From the IMG/VR virus record IMGVR_UViG_2579778894_000022: a stretch of DNA of 32,120 nucleotides, one strand, 5' to 3'. Every line of letters begins with the position of its first letter. The first letter of the stretch is position 1. Shown piece by piece: positions 4,341 to 27,385 of this stretch. The DNA is from a virus (taxonomy: Duplodnaviria > Heunggongvirae > Uroviricota > Caudoviricetes). Made by a program: the position numbers and the translations under genes. The notes under the pieces were generated by a model. It saw only the letters and a program-made list of their open reading frames with translations, was not told where the DNA came from and did no database searches.

Positions 4341-5820
4341 TAATCACCTCAATACTGACACCACCGGGAACAAACAACGGGTTGCTGATACCGTTCCTGC
4401 GGGCCAGCCGTTGCCAGTTCCGGCTGTTTCCTGTGTAACGGTACAGAGCCACCATTGCAGGCATCGTCTCCGGCAGGCGGTGCGTTTCACTGCCTGCCAG
4501 TTGCAGCCCGCGTTTTTCCAGGTCGGCAACAACCAGCAGACGCAGTTGCGTAAGCTGAACGCTGTCTGTCGAAAAGCCCTGCTCAGATGCCGTCAGAATG
4601 ACGGTATCCAGCGCTGCCCCCAGCATGGCGGCTGTTTTTCCGATATCGGACACACTTTCAAATACCGGGGGCGTGGCTGTACCACTGTCTGAAAAGGATA
4701 CCTGTGAAAAGCCGCCGTCCGGGGTTATGGCAGTTAACTGTAACTGTCCCTGTGTGACGGTAGCGGATGTGCTGCTGGCCCCGCTGGCTGTGCCGGTTGT
4801 GGTGGACGGGGCATCCAGTACAGGTGCACGGGCGGCATTATCCATCCGGCGACTGAAATCCAGTGCCGCAGTCAGTGCCTGGCTTGCTGCCTCCGCCCGG
4901 TATGTCTGTGCTGCTGCCAGCATGACGTAGTTCAGTGTGGCAATATTTTTTTCTGCAACCGGACTGTTGTACGAGGTTGTGATTGTCCCCTGTCTGCCTG
5001 CGGTGGCGGCATGGCGACGTTCGAATCGCTGCGCCAGACGGTTCCATGTGGAAAATGCTGTCCGGGTATCGCATAACGATGAAACGCCGGACAGCGCCCC
5101 CATCAGCGAGGAGGCCAGCATGGCAGGCTGGTTAATCAGGCTGGTCACAGAGCCTTTCATCGCAGAAAGCGATCCCATCAGACCGCTGACAGTCTGCGTA
5201 ACCCCCAGATTGTCCACCGCATCACTGATATCATCGATGACACCGGTTACAGCTTCCATCACGGCGGTTGCCGCCGCAGTGCCATCTTTTACGGTCTGCC
5301 AGACAGAGGACAGCGTATCTCCCAGAGAACCGGTTACAGCAACGGCCTGTGCCGGTACGGCTGCACTGGTGTCTGTCTCTGAGTCCGGGGCAGTATCCTG
5401 CAACGACGGATAAACGGTAACGGTGAACGCGTAATAATTCAGTTCATCCGCTTTAGTGCGGCATTCCCATGAATCCACCATGACGTCCACAGTGCCGAAA
5501 TCAGGATGTACCAGCTCACCGCTACCCGGAGCATCAAGAGCATCCATCAGCGCACCCGCTTCATCTCTGGCTGTTTCTGCGTTGCTGTTCAGAATGCAGG
5601 CGCTGAATGTACGGGAGCGAAGCTTTTTCCCCAGGTCATTGACGCCGCCGGTATCACGTAACGGGTACTCGCGTTTAACCAGGCGACGTCCGCCAGCCTG
5701 TTTTTGCTCCTCGATGACGAGAAACGGCACGTTACGAAACGTGCCTTTGCCGGTTGTTTTCTTACCACCGCTGATTTTATCCCGGACAGCATTAACGGCA
5801 TTTAAAGCATCTTCAAACAT
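4333..5820 (-). CDS. DNA circularization protein family (Mu gene 43 position)
   Basis: 495 aa; N-terminus [19 protein letters not shown]...; Ala/Thr/Ser-rich central region; directly follows the tape measure gene. Confidence 0.75.
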
Positions 5821-5824
5821 GGTT

Positions 5825-7897
5825 TTACCAGCCTGTAATGTAGTTATCGCCCGCGTAAATATTCAGCCCCATACCGTCCTCGGTGACGCGGGAACTGGTC
5901 AGACGTAACCCCTCGGCAAGTTCGACGCGCAGCGAGGCTTCCGCATTCACTTTTTGTTCCTGCGGTTCCTTATCCGGGGCCGTCCATTTCTGATACAGGT
6001 CGGTTACAAAACCGCCCAGATACTCCCCGGCGACACTGCCCAGCGTGGCACCGGCAACCGTACCCAGCGGTCCGGCAAGGCTGCCAACGGCACCGCCGAG
6101 CCATGCACCGGCTGTACTGCCAATTGCGCCTGCTTTTTCATGGGTTGACGCCTGCTCATCCATCAGGACGGGGGCAAGCTGGAGTGCCCCCATTACCGGG
6201 CCACCCAGACGTGACAACGCACGACCGGCACCTTTCCCCATCCAGCCCAGCGCCCCGGCACCTTTTGTCACAACCCGACCGATCGCACTGCCTGCAAGTT
6301 TGTTTCCGATACCGGAAAACCACCCGCCAACAGCACGCCCGGCATCAGCCAGCTTTCCGACCGTTCCCGTAACCAGTTGCCCGGCAGCACTGCCTGCAAG
6401 CCTGCTCAGAAGACCGGATTTACCGGGTAAAGGTAATGGTGCAGGCCGTGCTGTTACCGGTACGCCGGGTGGGGGTAATGCCAGTACAGGGCGTGGTGCA
6501 GGTAATGCCAGCGGCTGTGGCCCGGACAGCAATAACGGCTGGCGGGGTAACAGCGGGGCCATTCTTCCGCCGCTCCGTCCGCGACGACCGCCGCCACTCC
6601 CGTAGCCACCAAATCCACGGGGCCAGTTGATGACAAACACACGCTGAATGCCGATACCCTGCAACAGCGTCTCAGACGTCATGGCATCCGGGACCGGCAG
6701 ACCTGCCTGCCCACGTTTGCGGTTTCGCATCCAGCGCCACATACGACGCCCGGTTTTAAACGGATAACTGGCAACCTGCCATGAGGGTTTTGCCACGGCC
6801 CAGCCTGCTCTCAGGGCTTTATTGGCAAGCCAGACAGACACCAGAACAGCAGCCAGTTTTTTCAGGCTGACAATATTCTGGTCAACCCATGCCAGCGCAT
6901 CTTTACCCGGTTTCAGCCAGCGCCATAATTCCTGCGCCGCGATTTTTACCGTTCTGAACGTGGTCAGAAATTTCTGACCAATGTTTTCTGCCAGTGCGTC
7001 AAGTTCCCCGGATTTATCCGCCATGTCGTGCCAGTTAAGCACCCGGCGCATCTCGTTCTTGATTTCTTCAAAGGGGCCGCTGTTTGCCACCTTTATGCGA
7101 AATTCAAGCAGGTTAGCTTCCATCTGGGCGAACATCCCGTCCCAGGAGTTCATCGCACTGGCCTGTGCACCTTTTGACTGTTCTGACAGCGTTCTGAATA
7201 CCGTCAGAATGGATTTCAGACCCAGCTTGCCTTTTTCACCTTGTTTGCGGATATCCTTAACGTCTTTACCCAGTGCATCCGCCAGCGTCTGGTAAACGTT
7301 AATACCGTAACCGGTCAGCAGGTTGGCATCCGCCGCCGTGATTTGCTGGCGGGCAAACATCTGTTTCAGTTGCAGTGAGGCACCCTGTGCAGTGGGTAAA
7401 TCCCAGCCGTGCATGGCCCCCTGATCCTGCAACATGGTGATGAACTGTTTCGTCTGTTCATCCGTCATGCCGAAGCCTTTCGACGAACGGATCTCATCCA
7501 GAACACCACTCAGCCCCCACGTGGTGTCCTTCGCGTTCTGCTTTGCCCAGGCCATCATGGCCTGCGCTCTGACCTTATCGCCGTGATACAGCGAGTTCAT
7601 GGCGATAATTTGCTGCTCACGCTGGGCGGCTGCACCAATAAACAGTTTATTGGCGGTGTAACCCACACCAGCGATACCCAGCGCCCCGGCTGACAGCATT
7701 CGGAATGTACGGGTTGACAGTGAACCCATTCTGTCAATGGCACCAGAAACGCGCACAACCTCCATACGCAGGGCACGAAGGGAACTTTGTCCGCTACGGG
7801 ACAGGGCGTTTATCTGGTTCGAATACTGGCGGGAACGCCGGGAAAGATTGCCATTAAGATCAATAATGACAGACGCCTTTAAGCGTTTCCCGGTCAT
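5825..7897 (-). CDS. Tail tape measure protein
   Basis: 690 aa, the longest tail ORF. It has a helical N-terminal half and a Gly/Pro/Ala-rich low-complexity C-terminal half, and sits downstream of the sheath, tube and chaperone genes. Confidence 0.85.
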
Positions 7898-10339: not shown

Positions 10340-10542
10340 TTCGATTTACTCCGTTTTTTCGGCGCAGCGTCGGTATCATCCGCCGTGTTTTCGGTGCTCC
10401 CGACTTCAACCACATCACCGGCTGCAAGGCGACGTATCCAGAAACTGTTACGGGGCTTTTCTTCTCCCTCCGGAGCCAGTAATTTCATCGTGAGCGGGTC
10501 ACGGATGGCTTTTCCCGCTGCGGGTTTAATTTTCAGCATCAT
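10336..10542 (-). CDS. Small virion-module protein (Mu gene 38 position)
   Basis: 68 aa ORF with stop/start overlap to neighbours, Lys-rich C-terminus. Confidence 0.55.
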
Positions 10543-11972: not shown

Positions 11973-12890
11973 TTACAGGTAGTCAGCGACAACCAGTTGC
12001 AGCTTGCCCTTCATCTCGTTGGAGACGGTGGTATTGCCATCCGCGAACAGTTCACGGTTAAGCAGTTGCTCTGCGGCTTTTTCCAGCCCGACCGGTACAA
12101 CGATATGCGTCGGCTTCAGGCCCAGCTTCTTACCGCCATCACCTTCAAAAGATCGCATCAGTTGCCAGCCCTTCCAGAGGTTATCCAGCGTCAGATCGCC
12201 TTTTACCGCGACAGCCATCTGCCAGAAGCCGTAACCGGCAGCACGGCGGGCGCTGGCACCAAACAGGAACTCGTTATCCATAAAAACGTGGTCGTCATCG
12301 ATACGGGTACGTGCGACCAGTTCCGGTTTGCGGCGCTCCTGGAAAATCAGCGGTTTGACTGCGCGGGAGCAGTCCAGCAGATAGAATGGCAGACCGCTGA
12401 AGCTGTCCTGCTCAACGATGTTGGAGGTATTAACCGCGCTGCCCGTGCCGTCCACATTCGGATATACCGGATGCTCCTTGTCGAAGAAGTTCTGACCGTC
12501 ATAGCAGGGCTGGGTAAAGCCATCTTTCAGAAGTTTAAAAATCAGCTCATCCGGCTGAACTGCCGCAGAACGGCCCATCTCCTGAAAAATCGGCGCATAA
12601 ATACCCAGATTGTCATCCTCGAAGTCATCACGGGAAATACCCACGGTGCCTTCAAACGTTTTATTGGCGATGGAGTAGCCATGCGCTTCCATTTGCTGAA
12701 TGGTTCGCTTACCCACCCATTCTTTCAGGGTCGGGAATTTACCCAGCCAGCCATAGGTATTACTGCGGGTGGAAGAGTTCACCACCATTGCAATTTTGCT
12801 GTACTGCGACGGGGCGTCTTCAAGACCGCCCTGAAAATCCTTACGCCAGGAGGTCATCAGGGCTTTAATGGATGCCGGGGTGACAATCAT
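11973..12890 (-). CDS. T: Major capsid (head) protein
   Basis: 305 aa, downstream of the protease/scaffold gene, followed by a stem-loop; matches Mu T in size and position. Confidence 0.85.
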   Translation of the reverse strand: MIVTPASIKALMTSWRKDFQGGLEDAPSQYSKIAMVVNSSTRSNTYGWLGKFPTLKEWVGKRTIQQMEAHGYSIANKTFEGTVGISRDDFEDDNLGIYAPIFQEMGRSAAVQPDELIFKLLKDGFTQPCYDGQNFFDKEHPVYPNVDGTGSAVNTSNIVEQDSFSGLPFYLLDCSRAVKPLIFQERRKPELVARTRIDDDHVFMDNEFLFGASARRAAGYGFWQMAVAVKGDLTLDNLWKGWQLMRSFEGDGGKKLGLKPTHIVVPVGLEKAAEQLLNRELFADGNTTVSNEMKGKLQLVVADYL

Positions 12891-13972
12891 TTTTCTTGTT
12901 CCTGTTTCATTTTCAGATACTCAGCCTCTGTAATGCCGAGCGCCTTCACTGCTGCCTGTTCATCAGCAGACAGCACCGCCACAGCCGTTTTTTCCTGCGA
13001 CGGGATTTTCGCTGTGGTGGTCTGCATGGCAGATAACGCAGCGATGGGCTGTTTTTTCTCAAGCTGTGCCGACAGTGCCGCCACGCCAATCTGACCGCCA
13101 AGCTGTTCCAGATAGGCACGTTCGCTTTTGAAAATGCGGCCTTCCTGTTCCGCCTTGTCCAGAACGGCGCTCAGGCTGGCTGTGGCGCTTTGTGCAGTCG
13201 CCTGTGCCAGTTCATCACGCAGGGCGTTGTAGCTTTCCACCGGGACGTATTTCGTCAGGTCAACGGCGGCTTTCTGTGCCTTTTCCAGTTCGGCGGATAA
13301 CGACGCCACTTTTCCGGCATCTGTTTCGAGCGCATCAAGCGCACTCAGGGCCGCGCTGGCCTGTTCATCGGTGATGTCTGCATTTTCGGGGACCGTCACC
13401 CCAAGACGCGCAAGCAGCTTGCGCAGCGTTTCATTCATGGGTTTGTTCTCCTGTTGAAGGATGTCGGGAAGGTCTGCCGCCAGTGCGGTCAGCTTTTTCA
13501 TGCCGGTGGCACCGGGGTCATTGGTCAGCGCAGCAAGGCGGATTTGCAGCACCGCACCGGTGGCGGTGTCATACGGAAAAACCGCAGAGAGATAACCAAA
13601 TTCACCGTCATCGATGCGCTGCTGTGCCGCCGCCGTCCAGCGTGGGTGGATAAATAATCCTTCACCTTCACGCCACTGCATTTCATCGGCGTTAAACCAG
13701 CCAGCCGCGACGAGTTGTTCCGGGGGTAATCCTTTGTCCTTACGTAGCTGGTTATGCTCGTAATCAATCAGCACGTCCTGGTTGAGCGCGCGAACGCCTT
13801 CAACCAGACGCCCGGCAATCTCACCGTCGATGAACCACCCCTGACCACCTGTCACATCAAACGGACGACCATCACGGGCACTGAAATGACCGGCAGGCAA
13901 TAGCTGGCACCAGCCGTCATCGTCAATGGACAGCGCACTCAATGCGGCAATGCCAATCGCGTGTTTTTTCAT
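12887..13972 (-). CDS. I: Head maturation protease / scaffold protein (the C-terminal coiled-coil part corresponds to scaffold Z in Mu)
   Basis: 361 aa; globular N-terminal domain then an Ala/Leu/Glu/Gln-rich coiled-coil C-terminal half (ELEKAQKAAVDL...AEYLKMKQEQEK). Confidence 0.8.
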   Translation of the reverse strand: MKKHAIGIAALSALSIDDDGWCQLLPAGHFSARDGRPFDVTGGQGWFIDGEIAGRLVEGVRALNQDVLIDYEHNQLRKDKGLPPEQLVAAGWFNADEMQWREGEGLFIHPRWTAAAQQRIDDGEFGYLSAVFPYDTATGAVLQIRLAALTNDPGATGMKKLTALAADLPDILQQENKPMNETLRKLLARLGVTVPENADITDEQASAALSALDALETDAGKVASLSAELEKAQKAAVDLTKYVPVESYNALRDELAQATAQSATASLSAVLDKAEQEGRIFKSERAYLEQLGGQIGVAALSAQLEKKQPIAALSAMQTTTAKIPSQEKTAVAVLSADEQAAVKALGITEAEYLKMKQEQEK

Positions 13973-14168
13973 GTCCTGCTGCTCATCATGGTTTGTGAGC
14001 AGTCAGTTTGCGGGAGGTGCGGGAAAATCTGGGGTTATGCTATTTGAGTAATGGAGAAAGAAAGTGGAAGGAAGATAAAACGGGATTCATACACCGTTAA
14101 ATACCGGTTTAAAAATCCCGTGGCGCGTTTTAAAAAATCTGTGCGGCTGATTTTATGCCTGATTCTGT
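13973..14168 (-). promoter_or_regulatory. G-I intergenic region: candidate C-dependent late promoter and candidate central strong gyrase site
   Basis: 196 bp non-coding gap, the only large one in the virion module. It contains a tandem GCGGGAGGTGCGGGA element sharing a 10-mer with the lys upstream region, plus a stem-loop just after the G stop. The promoter and gyrase-site roles are assigned from what I recall of Mu biology. Confidence 0.5.
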
Positions 14169-14639
14169 TTATTGCCTCAGAGCGACGCTGACGCGTTTTC
14201 TGATGGCATCAAAAATTTCCTGTTCCCCGGTCTTATCCAGCCCCATATAAGGACGCGCAGGAACGCCTGCCGGGCGGGGTGCCATATCGGGTGTACCGCC
14301 CCACTGATGAATGGCAGCATAAATTTTTGGCGAACCAATCAGGGCATAATCCTGTCCATAATCGGTGGTAATGCTGCGTGCCAGATCGCCATGCAGGGTA
14401 AGGATACTGCCCGGAACAAAACCATGATCCTGACGCCATGCCAGCCACGAATCGCTCCACGCTTCCCAGCCTTTCCCTGTATCCGGGTCTGCCTGCCGTT
14501 CAAATGCCTGTTCCGTGGATGACAGCAGCGCCGCAGCCATCACACGGGGAATGGCGCGGTCACGTGTAACGGTTCCCAGTTCATCCAGTGCAAGCTGAAT
14601 ACGTCGCACATCCACGGCAACGTTCATATCAAGACTCAC
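14169..14639 (-). CDS. G: Virion morphogenesis protein
   Basis: 156 aa ORF between F and I. Confidence 0.75.
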   Translation of the reverse strand: MSLDMNVAVDVRRIQLALDELGTVTRDRAIPRVMAAALLSSTEQAFERQADPDTGKGWEAWSDSWLAWRQDHGFVPGSILTLHGDLARSITTDYGQDYALIGSPKIYAAIHQWGGTPDMAPRPAGVPARPYMGLDKTGEQEIFDAIRKRVSVALRQ

Positions 14640-17474: not shown

Positions 17475-19129
17475 TACCAGCCCCCTCGTTCAAACTGGTG
17501 ATAATCATCAAAATCATCGTTATCAACATCATCACCACGGTGGCGTGGTGGCAGCGCCTGTATGCTGTCCTCGTCGATAACAAAACCATTCATATAAGAC
17601 GCCCTGACAGCCATACAGAGCGCCACGGCAAAGTCGCCATGTCGTCGGCCTTTACCGCCTTCATCTTTTGTGCGCCCCTTATCAATCTGCGGAATACCTT
17701 TGTCCACCTTGATGTGGAGCAGGTCATCAAGTGTGGTCTGGTGCCGGGCAATCGTGATGTTCTGCGCTTCAAACTCGCCTTTCAGTTTTGGCATCCACTC
17801 CTGATACCAGGATGCGGTCAGATTCACACAGTCGATCATCTCCGGGCCATAAATCAGACGGGCGGCTTCTGCCAGATAACCGCCGTTACCGGTGGCATCA
17901 AATGCAGCGCCGGTAAAACGGGGCAAACGGGACAGAATGAATAAAAGGATTTGTCGCTGCTGGTCATAGGTCACATTACGCAGCTCCACGCGGAAACATT
18001 CGCGTTTGCGTAAGTCAGGAGTGATGGCAAGCGGCACAAACACCGACAGGTCGCCACGGCGTGCAAAGTCTTCGCCCAGTACGTGTTTATTGAGCGGCGA
18101 CAGCGCATCGAGCAACGGGAGCAGCTCCTGTTCACACCAGTCCTGAACGATGCCGTGGCGCATTTGTGGTGTCAGCGATTCAAAATCGTCCGGGGCTTCA
18201 AAACGCAGAATCGGGATATCCCGCGCTGGCGTCATGGCGGCTTCAATCAGCACGCGTGACAGATAAGCGCCCCCGGATTTTTTAGGAATGCAGCCGTATT
18301 CCTCGTCGGCACTCTCTTTATTCGGCGCATTCCGGTACAGGCCATCACGCCAGGCTTTTTCCGCTTCCGGCGACCACGGCTGATTCGTGACGTAACAGAT
18401 ACGTCGGTACAACCCGTCAGCGATGGCATCATCCAGCGTGATGCGGTGAACGCTGTAATCCTTGCGCCCCTCGCGCGCATCCTGAATGTACTGGTTAAAC
18501 AGGTTATCGACGCCGTTATGTGTCGATATGATCCGCACGTTGGCACCCCACATGGTGAGAGCAAAAGCCGCTTTCAGGAGTTCGTCCAGGGCTTCATGAA
18601 ATGCCGCCTCATCAATCACCACGTCCCCCTGCAAACCACGCAGGTTAGACGGACGGCTTGACAGCGCCTGCACCTTAAATCCGCTGTTAGGGAAACGGAT
18701 CATATAAGTGAGGATTTCTTCTTTTTTGTCGCTGTCCCAGAAGGTCTGCTCCCAGACATCAGCCTTTGCCAGCTGGTTAAAGGCGCGGGCAAACAGGGCA
18801 CAGGCGGCGATATATTCCAGCGCCATTTCCTGACGGGAACCCACATAAAAGACGTTGCGACCGCCACGGCGGCGCGGCTTTGCTGCCGTCATGACATTGC
18901 GGCCCGCTTCGGCCCATGTCAGACCGGTACGACGGGATTTTTCAGCGATGCAAATCTGGCTTTCATCCTCAAACCAGCGGCGCTGATAACCCAGGAAAAC
19001 CGGTTCATTGCGGGGCTGTGCTTCACCGATATCGGTCACGATATTCACGCCGAGCAGTTCGGCTTCCTCACGCAGGTTGATTTTGCGGGGCGCATGAAGG
19101 GCTTTAAGGTTGTTTTCTCTGGTGTTCAT
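17474..19129 (-). CDS. Terminase large subunit (Mu gene 28 position)
   Basis: 551 aa from the ATG at 19129 (MNTRENNLKALHAP...), which has an upstream GAGGG and sits 8 nt after the preceding stop. Deviant Walker A-like AEKSRRTGLT. The ORF track's 615 aa version is an upstream extension overlapping the previous gene. Confidence 0.85.
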   Translation of the reverse strand: MNTRENNLKALHAPRKINLREEAELLGVNIVTDIGEAQPRNEPVFLGYQRRWFEDESQICIAEKSRRTGLTWAEAGRNVMTAAKPRRRGGRNVFYVGSRQEMALEYIAACALFARAFNQLAKADVWEQTFWDSDKKEEILTYMIRFPNSGFKVQALSSRPSNLRGLQGDVVIDEAAFHEALDELLKAAFALTMWGANVRIISTHNGVDNLFNQYIQDAREGRKDYSVHRITLDDAIADGLYRRICYVTNQPWSPEAEKAWRDGLYRNAPNKESADEEYGCIPKKSGGAYLSRVLIEAAMTPARDIPILRFEAPDDFESLTPQMRHGIVQDWCEQELLPLLDALSPLNKHVLGEDFARRGDLSVFVPLAITPDLRKRECFRVELRNVTYDQQRQILLFILSRLPRFTGAAFDATGNGGYLAEAARLIYGPEMIDCVNLTASWYQEWMPKLKGEFEAQNITIARHQTTLDDLLHIKVDKGIPQIDKGRTKDEGGKGRRHGDFAVALCMAVRASYMNGFVIDEDSIQALPPRHRGDDVDNDDFDDYHQFERGGW

Positions 19130-20802: not shown

Positions 20803-21049
20803 GATGTTCTGTCTCGTCTGCCAGCCGTGCGGCACGATTTGCGGCACGGATAGCGGAAAATACCTGCATCGTCTGTTCCTGACCGTGTAACAACCATTCA
20901 GCCGTGTGGCGGGCCTGTTGCTCCGTCTGTAATTTACGGCGCAGCGTCTGGTTATCGTGGCGGGTGCTGTCCAGCCTGTGCCACAACACCCCGGACAGAA
21001 CGGCGGCAAACACGGCTGCCAGCAGTAAACTTTTACTGGCGAAGGTCAT
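20663..21049 (-). CDS. i-spanin (inner-membrane spanin subunit, Rz-like)
   Basis: ATG at 21049 overlaps the lys stop with GGGGG upstream. N-terminal transmembrane helix SLLLAAVFAAVLSGVLW then a charged helical periplasmic domain; embedded o-spanin gene. Confidence 0.7.
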   Translation of the reverse strand: MTFASKSLLLAAVFAAVLSGVLWHRLDSTRHDNQTLRRKLQTEQQARHTAEWLLHGQEQTMQVFSAIRAANRAARLADETEHHDAKQKITTAITGDNCSTRPVPAVAADRLRELEKRTRAIGGDPARN

Positions 21050-21552
21050 CCGCCCCCCCTGATATTCCAGATAGCCATTTCCACTTCGCGACGGTTCATC
21101 AGTCCTTTCCATTTATGGCCTGCGGCAAACACCCAGCGGGCCATCTGGTCACGCGCTCCGGCGTAATCACCGGCATTGAGTTTTTTCAGCAGCGTTGATT
21201 TACTGAATGCGGTAACACCGGTGTTGAAAATAAACGTTGCCAGCGCCGTTTTCTGATATGGCGTCAGCGGCACTCTGACAAGACGATCGATTGCCGCATA
21301 AACCGGTTTTAAATCACTGTCGAGAAAAGCCATACACTCCGCATGGCTGTAACGGCGCATTTCGATATCCGGCCCGGTATGTCCCACACAGACCGTAAGC
21401 ACACCGGCAATATCGCGGTAAGGCATATAAGCGATATTTTCCAGATGGATCAGAGACTGACGGGTCATTTCCTGATAACCACCCACACCGCCACCGGCAA
21501 TCGTTGCCGCCAGCAGTGCTGCTTTCAGTTTTTTTGGTATCCCCGCCATCAT
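21046..21552 (-). CDS. lys: SAR endolysin (T4-lysozyme-like, GH24-type)
   Basis: N-terminal weakly hydrophobic Gly/Ala-rich signal-anchor-release segment (KAALLAATIAGGGVGGY) followed by a Glu-8aa-Asp-5aa-Thr catalytic spacing (HLENIAYMPYRDIAGVLT). Confidence 0.85.
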   Translation of the reverse strand: MMAGIPKKLKAALLAATIAGGGVGGYQEMTRQSLIHLENIAYMPYRDIAGVLTVCVGHTGPDIEMRRYSHAECMAFLDSDLKPVYAAIDRLVRVPLTPYQKTALATFIFNTGVTAFSKSTLLKKLNAGDYAGARDQMARWVFAAGHKWKGLMNRREVEMAIWNIRGGG

Positions 21553-21643
21553 GCTTCCCTGAAAAAATGCTCTGATGGCAGTCTAAAAAATCAGATGGCA
21601 GGTGCGGGATTATGGTGACAGGAAATAACCGGCAGGATGCCGG
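21553..21643 (-). promoter_or_regulatory. C-lys intergenic region: candidate middle-transcript terminator and C-dependent late promoter
   Basis: Stem-loop CCGGCA-tcc-TGCCGG plus TTATTT directly after the C stop. Contains the 10-mer AGGTGCGGGA (plus strand 21600..21609) that is also present upstream of I. Confidence 0.5.
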
Positions 21644-22066
21644 TTATTTCAGGCTTTCAGGTGAGAACAGATCAGGCTGATGACGTCGTGTATGCAGCTT
21701 TCTCTGGCGGGCAATAATCTGGTAGATCTGCGGCTGGGACAGGCGATACTGGCGACGCAGTTCTTCCATGTTACGACCATTGAACTGGCAGTAAAGCAAA
21801 TCGTCGCGTAACGCGGTCAGGATCGTATCGCCGCAGGGGATGTAAAACTGCCGCCCGCCCAGAAAACAGGACAGGGCAACGGCCTGTTTACGGGCAAGCT
21901 CACGGGGATTGCTGACGTTCTGGCGTTTCAGTTCGTTTTCCAGAACATCAATCAGATCAACCACCGAACGGGGCCAGCGTGACTCCAGTTCCGGGGCCGG
22001 GATGTTATCAATATGTCCGATTAACTGGCGAATTGCCGGATCGTGTTCAAATAAATCATGCTGCAT
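21644..22066 (-). CDS. C: Late gene transcription activator C (Mor/C family)
   Basis: 140 aa; clear paralogy to Mor visible in the sequence (YIPCGDTILTALRDDLLYCQFNGRNMEELRRQYRLSQPQIYQIIA versus Mor YIPRGQVLDSLIRDLRIWNDFNGRNVHELAIRHGVTFNTVYKAIR); HTH at the C-terminus. Confidence 0.9.
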   Translation of the reverse strand: MQHDLFEHDPAIRQLIGHIDNIPAPELESRWPRSVVDLIDVLENELKRQNVSNPRELARKQAVALSCFLGGRQFYIPCGDTILTALRDDLLYCQFNGRNMEELRRQYRLSQPQIYQIIARQRKLHTRRHQPDLFSPESLK

Positions 22067-26965: not shown

Positions 26966-27385
26966 TCAGTACAGCAGAGGCTCGCGCAGTGATGCCGGAA
27001 TATGTCGCAGCGATAACTGAACCGCTTTCAGGGCAAGCGAGGAATAACAGCAGCGCGCCCAGCCTTTTGCCATTAACCGGTAATCGCGCCAGATACGCTG
27101 CCACATTTCACGGGCTTCAGGGTCTGATGCGCAGATGTATTCCCGGTCCATGACGTACTCCCATAAATCCACGTTGAACGCACCGCCAAATGCAATGGCG
27201 CGGGATATGCTTTCGCCGCAATAACGCGCACAGATGCTGTAATGGTCGAAAGCGATCAGGTACGTCTTTTCACCACAATCATCAACTTTCCTGGCGCAAA
27301 TAAACTCGCGTAATTCACCACCGTTGTTATTGCGTTCCTGAATTCGGATTAATGCCTGAATTTCATTTCGGATTTTGACGTTCAT
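26966..27385 (-). CDS. Cys-rich early protein, function unknown
   Basis: 139 aa with several Cys and aromatic residues. Confidence 0.55.
   Translation of the reverse strand: MNVKIRNEIQALIRIQERNNNGGELREFICARKVDDCGEKTYLIAFDHYSICARYCGESISRAIAFGGAFNVDLWEYVMDREYICASDPEAREMWQRIWRDYRLMAKGWARCCYSSLALKAVQLSLRHIPASLREPLLY

Follow-up and report, generated by a model that had tools for sequence, protein, structure and literature searches.

Late promoters of bacteriophage Mu

The binding site of C, the late-gene activator of bacteriophage Mu, is said to have been described as a dyad by Chiang & Howe in 1993 and by Sun, Hattman & Kool in 1997, work that Jiang & Howe summarised in 2008. Four 67-nt late promoters activated by C are annotated in the Mu genome record AF083977, which cites Margolin, Rao & Howe 1989 (PMID 2522923): Plys (10403-10469), PI (17977-18043), PP (27287-27353) and Pmom (35693-35759). 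As given by Jiang & Howe 2008 (PMC2582627), the C site extends from -51 to -36 and forms an imperfect dyad of 16 bp with its centre at -43.5. On Plys and Pmom, C protects approximately positions -55 to -30 from DNase I, single-base changes in Plys define a required region from -52 to -34, and bases immediately downstream of the dyad are reported to be important (PMC2582627). According to PMC4461284, RNA polymerase is able to bind Plys, PI and PP without C, which acts at the step from the closed to the open complex. The same paper notes a stretch of six T residues before the -10 hexamer of Plys, and Fig 1B of that paper already marks a 10-bp match between the lys and I promoters.

Gene layout of the analysed region

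The DNA analysed here, hereafter the window, is the whole 32,120-base stretch of the viral record. The segments around the two copies of the 10-mer treated below, and around a third, related site, are 97-100% identical to phages Mu, SfMu and D108 on the reverse strand, and a set of Yersinia Mu-like phages matches these segments to the same degree. Since the Mu-type matches lie on the reverse strand, the window genes are read on the minus strand. The window belongs, as a natural variant, to the group of Mu, SfMu and D108.

The gene for the late-gene activator C (21644-22066, minus strand) encodes a protein of 140 aa that is identical to Mu C except for residues 138 and 139, both of which lie outside the helix-turn-helix. 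Because of this near-identity, the published Mu data apply directly to the window. The cognate activator is encoded on the same element as the late promoters. The genes considered as late-promoter targets are lys (21046-21552, minus strand) and I (12887-13972, minus strand; ATG at 13972), the latter preceded by G (14169-14639, minus strand). The lys reading frame opens with two in-frame ATG codons (21549-21552), the first at 21552 and the second, at 21549, corresponding to the start annotated in Mu. Similarity to Mu stops within lys at approximately position 21300 and some Yersinia phages match further, which points to a putative mosaic junction in the lysis region. The Mu record also annotates a strong gyrase cut site (17879-17880) and a predicted terminator (17908-17953) just upstream of PI; this area corresponds to window positions of approximately 14148-14150, between G and I.

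With this layout, the segment 21553-21643 is very probably the C-lys intergenic region of a Mu-type phage, comprising the middle-transcript terminator hairpin followed by the C-dependent promoter Plys.

Late promoters in the window

A gap-free alignment was obtained for the four annotated Mu promoters of 67 nt, in which the ATAA motif occupies columns 14-17 and the -10 hexamers columns 42-47. With the hexamers set to -12 to -7, ATAA falls at -40 to -37; in Pmom, the dyad TTAT-N6-ATAA is then centred at -43.5, and the -35 element ACCACA has a spacer of 19 bp. Since this dyad centre and spacing match those in PMC2582627 exactly, the numbering is sound within a base or two; the absolute position of +1 rests on the GenBank features and PMC2582627, with a possible error of 1-2 nt. 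Coordinates, register, architecture and conservation were determined in this work, and C binding, its footprint and the required bases are taken from the literature.

Plys occupies 21560-21626 on the minus strand (-53 to +14, predicted +1 near 21573); it corresponds base for base to AF083977 10403-10469, from which it differs at 2 of the 67 positions. Its predicted C-binding site, the 16-bp imperfect dyad TTCCTGTCACCATAAT (-51 to -36), lies at 21609-21624 (minus strand), the position being taken from PMC2582627 and the register from the four-promoter alignment. The core box ATAATCCC (-40 to -33; 21606-21613, minus strand) fits the pattern ATAA[CT]CCC-N20-NANNNT, and the -10 hexamer TAGACT (21580-21585, minus strand), which follows a run of six T residues, was placed by in-register alignment with PI, PP and Pmom. 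Upstream of these elements, a hairpin at the end of gene C (21622-21650, minus strand) represents the middle-transcript terminator, with a folding energy of the RNA of -19.6 kcal/mol and a z-score of -6.7; the Mu terminator is annotated at the same place. The 3' arm of this hairpin adjoins the upstream half of the C site. The T tract of this hairpin is weak, for which reason a simple terminator scan missed it, but folding revealed it clearly.

PI is located at 13985-14051 on the minus strand (-53 to +14, predicted +1 near 13998) and differs from AF083977 17977-18043 at 1 of 67 positions. Its core box ATAACCCC (-40 to -33; 14031-14038, minus strand) was assigned by alignment and pattern, with the 16-bp C site expected at 14034-14049; the -10 hexamer CAAACT (14005-14010, minus strand) was assigned by in-register alignment and by the 20-nt spacing from the box. 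PP lies within gene N (4675-4741, minus strand) and is identical to AF083977 27287-27353, with the box ATAACCCC at 4721-4728 (minus strand) and the -10 hexamer TATCCT at 4695-4700. Pmom, the -10 hexamer of which is TAAGAT, falls outside the window.

Positions -35 to -30 read CCCGCA in Plys and CCCAGA in PI, so that neither promoter has a usable -35 hexamer, and a scan of 21450-21750 for sigma-70 consensus promoters found none. Compared with their Mu counterparts, Plys and PI of the window show no difference of substance: they serve the same genes from the same positions and share the ATAA box, the 20-nt spacing and the -10 hexamers. On the strength of this sequence identity, the C-dependence of both promoters is expected to carry over from Mu.

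The element that is in register among these promoters is CATAAYCCC (-41 to -33), followed by 20 nt and the -10 hexamer, and it marks Plys, PI and PP. Only the three window promoters match CATAAYCCCRSA, even when one mismatch is allowed, and ATAA[CT]CCC-N20-NANNNT likewise detects Plys, PI and PP alone on either strand of the window. The exact matches of the box are circular, because the patterns were derived from the promoters themselves; the absence of other matches is the informative part.

Within the PI leader there is a mini-ORF, ATGATGAGCAGCAGGACATGA (13972-13992, minus strand), which overlaps the start codon of I in an ATGA sequence. Short ORFs of this kind also occur in the related loci L008, L009 and L010, and are lacking in L005 and L006. 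The mini-ORF may be a simple reflection of the ribosome-binding sequence GAGCAGG.

Occurrence and register of the shared 10-mer

A sequence-only reading of this region had drawn attention to a 10-mer, AGGTGCGGGA, shared by the regions upstream of lys and I, and had proposed it as a recognition element for C. Exactly two copies of the word are present in the window, both of them on the plus strand (14015-14024 and 21600-21609); the two downstream genes lie on the minus strand, and the coding-strand form of the word is TCCCGCACCT. The copies end 48 nt before the lys start codon and 43 nt before that of I, in agreement with the distance of roughly 45-50 nt originally given, and both lie, as had been supposed, inside genuine late promoters that are C-dependent in Mu, namely Plys and PI at the positions matching AF083977.

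After the two exact copies, the next-best matches in the window carry one mismatch and lie in coding sequence. With up to two mismatches allowed there are 42 copies, against 30 expected; they are dispersed through coding sequence and show no association with promoters. The expectation for this particular word in the whole window is 0.02, a value that overstates the surprise because the word was chosen after being seen. Two 100-nt regions share any word of at least 10 bases in 0.8% of shuffles of the two upstream regions, and in 1.8% of random pairs of real 100-nt window segments. The claim that such sharing is unlikely to be due to chance thus holds in that the match is unusual (0.8-1.8%), but not in the sense of overwhelming evidence, several upstream regions having been compared. 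Since sharing at this level is uncommon by chance, room is left for selection on the word. The 10-mer is the sole match of at least 10 bases between Plys and PI, and for this reason the match marked in PMC4461284 must be the same observation.

Promoter numbering separates the two copies. At lys the 10-mer (TCCCGCACCT) spans -36 to -27 (21600-21609, minus strand); it begins with the final dyad base and takes in both the box CCC and the non-consensus -35 region. At I, the same word spans -26 to -17 (14015-14024, minus strand), in the spacer between the -35 region and the -10 hexamer, and the C box of PI is a separate sequence, CATAACCCCAGA, 10 nt upstream of it. In the four-promoter alignment the copies occupy columns 18-27 (Plys) and 28-37 (PI), an offset of exactly 10 bp. 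The positions had been called equivalent, which is true relative to the start codons but not relative to the -10 hexamers and transcription starts, where they are 10 bp out of register. The same shift is visible in the TTATG sequence said to follow both copies: it is present in each case, immediately after the word at lys (21610-21614) and 10 nt later at I (14035-14039). The conserved core proper is in fact this stretch, which reads CATAA on the coding strand and received only passing mention in the sequence-only reading.

Could the 10-mer itself nevertheless be the recognition element, placed equivalently in the late promoters? There are exactly two copies, both within C-dependent promoters, and comparison with the published data gives the lys copy some credit: 7 of its 10 bases overlap the footprint, and its first 3 bases fall in the required region. 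However, this copy only touches the promoter-proximal edge of the dyad, sharing 1 bp with it; it includes the conserved CCC and the adjacent downstream bases, yet it is not the dyad. The PI copy lies wholly in the spacer and has zero overlap with the dyad. No C footprint on PI was found in the literature searched; one resembling those on Plys and Pmom would exclude the PI copy. The word is, moreover, missing from PP and Pmom, although both are also C-dependent, and the two copies are out of register with both the -10 hexamers and the ATAA box. PI was also searched for another -10 hexamer that would align its copy with that of Plys; the sequence located 20 nt after the relevant CCC, GCTCAC, is not -10-like. 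Together with the lack of conservation of word bases 5-10 in relatives that keep the promoter architecture (see below), these observations make a recognition function of the word itself extremely improbable, and the idea appears largely refuted by register and conservation.

A gapped relative of the word, GGTGACGCGGGAA, had been reported inside the 3' end of the tape-measure gene, and it is indeed present there, at 5882-5894, approximately 60 nt upstream of the start of N. This third site was considered as a candidate for PP and rejected: PP lies inside N at 4675-4741, and the site has no ATAANCCC box and no annotated promoter. It is treated here as a chance near-match and not as a promoter.

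Comparison with related phages

Relatives were collected via the portal protein, which yielded 9 prophage loci from bacterial genomes and 39 loci from viral contigs, each with a 10-kb flank, and the C-lys and G-I intergenic regions were extracted from the fetched loci. C homologues were aligned using best matches only, in order to exclude the paralogue Mor. The loose pattern [AG][TGA]AA-N-C[AC]C, followed by 20 nt and NANNNT, has exactly one match per region. The resulting set consists of 33 distinct promoter variants (16 of Plys and 17 of PI), from phages with C proteins 54-100% identical to that of the window. The distance from the box to the -10 hexamer is exactly 20 nt in 33/33 variants, with boxes composed of ATAA, GGAA, GTAA or AGAA, then N and C[AC]C. 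Since the alignment was anchored on the box, conservation of the box columns is to some extent a product of the method; conservation at -51, -49 and -47 of PI is independent of this anchor. Across the 33 variants, the spacers of Plys end in a T run, and those of PI are T-rich and then C/G-rich.

The word behaves differently from the architecture. Information content amounts to only 0.2-1.2 bits at -32 to -27 of Plys and at -26 to -17 of PI. In relatives with C proteins 54-75% identical to that of the window, only the TCC(C) part of the word is kept at Plys, and beyond it there is no conservation. The word is retained in nearly all close relatives of Mu, including 41 Escherichia coli genomes with PI regions 95-100% identical (one of them read base by base), but this is not proof of constraint, because these relatives are too similar overall. 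Similarly, the PI variant of E. coli KO11FL (98% identical) is uninformative about the word because its differences fall outside it. A substitution within the word was found in a close relative: locus L015, the C protein of which is 99% identical, carries two substitutions in the PI copy (TCCCGCACCT to CCCCGCCCCT) in an otherwise unchanged promoter.

These data bear on the possibility that selection maintains the PI copy as a secondary element. It would be a degenerate second half-box (ATTTTCCCGCACCT versus ATAATCCCGCACCT) on the same face of the DNA, one turn downstream, that modulates open-complex formation at PI by contacting C or RNA polymerase. The offset of exactly 10 bp speaks for such an element, the match grows to 12 of 15 bases if the two AT bases before it are counted, and the nominal probability of a shared 10-mer arising by chance is only about 1-2%; in addition, C acts at isomerisation at Plys, PI and PP (PMC4461284), a step at which the sequence of the spacer could matter. 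Against it, related phages keep neither the word nor its position in their PI spacers, where the place of T-run/C-run motifs such as TTTCCC varies by several bases from lineage to lineage, and the two substitutions in L015 left the rest of the promoter as it was. Furthermore, a 2025 cryo-EM preprint places C on DNA upstream of the -35 element and not on the spacer, and the second box is not followed by a -10-like hexamer 20 nt further on. We therefore consider a secondary element at PI improbable. If it did exist, it would help to set the differing strengths of the late promoters.

Sharing of sequence between Plys and PI is itself common outside the Mu lineage, where it takes another form. In 13 of 15 distinct pairs, the longest word common to a phage's own Plys and PI is in register, at approximately -49 to -30. 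These shared words lie in or next to the box and reach up to 19-21 bases; examples are TCAGATACCGGAATCACCT (19 bases, Kluyvera type), TCAGATACCGGAATCCCCGAT (21 bases) and ATAACCCCGCCT (12 bases, locus L023). The two exceptions have 7-base words, at an offset of -2 in L043 and of 19 in L015, the latter being the close relative of Mu mentioned above. Among the relatives sampled, a long shared word at an offset of 10 was found in the Mu lineage only, and the duplication of the word appears to be specific to that lineage.

The clear relatedness or homogenisation of late promoters within other lineages, with shared 19-21-mers in register, lends some plausibility to a third reading, in which the word is a relic of common descent or of gene conversion between Plys and PI. 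An ATAA-TCCCGCACCT module would have received a 10-bp insertion, CCCCAGATTT, that created the present PI box, and a compensating loss downstream would have kept the distance at 20 nt. Removal of CCCCAGATTT from PI does restore the Plys arrangement, ATAATCCCGCACCT. Nevertheless, two compensating indels of equal size are needed, no intermediate form occurs among the 33 variants sampled, and chance in C-rich sequence is a simpler explanation. We regard such a relic as rather unlikely, though deserving more weight than either of the functional alternatives.

Several further features were observed among the related loci. In L006, L007, L009, L011, L032 and L034 the promoters contain CCGGAATC instead of CCATAAYC, and the C proteins of phages with CCGGAATC have the helix-turn-helix sequence SQTQIYDII in place of SQPQIYQII (P112T, Q116D). 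Residue Q116 of C is listed as DNA-contacting in the 2025 cryo-EM preprint. The two changes may represent a co-change of protein and site; alternatively, they may reflect a single clade. In phages with a GGAA box (L006, L009 and related ones), the shared 19-21-mer holds a near-palindrome, GATACCGGAATC, at about -46 to -35 in both promoters, the centre of which is located approximately 3 bp downstream of that of the Mu dyad.

The IMG/VR contigs L023 and L052 are mosaic, with a protein I that is 99% identical to that of the window and a C protein that is only 75% identical, and their Plys and PI both carry the different shared box ATAACCCCGCCT. In these phages the PI promoter appears to have moved together with the C allele, not with the I gene that it drives. 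Loci L009 and L035 (Erwinia tracheiphila type) have approximately seven tandem copies of CCCCAAAAG, encoding a PKS repeat, at the 5' end of lys; this array is absent in the other relatives.

Discussion

Published work on Mu, carried over to the window on the strength of the near-identity of C, gives the following scheme of late-promoter activation. C would bind the imperfect dyad centred at about -43.5, the promoter-proximal half of which is CATAA, followed by (C/T)CCC. This box is placed exactly 20 nt upstream of an NANNNT -10 hexamer, and the promoters offer no usable -35 hexamer. Once bound, C would help sigma-70 RNA polymerase to form the open complex. Plys, located after the terminator hairpin at the end of gene C, would rely on C at the dyad. 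In Plys the 10-mer flanks the C site on its downstream side; in PI, where it is shifted downstream by one helical turn, it is part of the pyrimidine-rich spacer.

Placed at the edge of the dyad in one promoter and in the spacer in the other, the 10-mer as a unit is therefore, with high probability, not the C recognition element, that role belonging to the neighbouring, already described box. Of the interpretation put forward in the sequence-only reading, the promoters were right and the element was wrong: the word lies outside the dyad except for 1 bp, differs in register between the two promoters, is absent from PP and Pmom and is not conserved in relatives.

As for the origin of the duplicated word, which we infer from these comparisons, the likeliest explanations are a coincidence favoured by C-rich composition and common ancestry of both promoters, of which the word would be a relic; chance in C-rich sequence is the most likely single cause of the identity. 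The offset between the copies amounts to exactly one helical turn and could be meaningful.

The finding is already known in its components, since the promoters, the activator, the binding site and even the 10-bp match are in the literature. In PMC4461284 the same word is marked in a figure legend and no function is discussed for it in the portion of the text searched; what the present work adds is the comparison with related phages. Its useful outcome is a correction: the eye-catching word is not what C recognises, and the motif in register is CATAAYCCC, located 20 nt before the -10 hexamer. Since this architecture is without exception in the 33 variants from related prophages, it provides a guide for annotating late promoters in Mu-like prophages.
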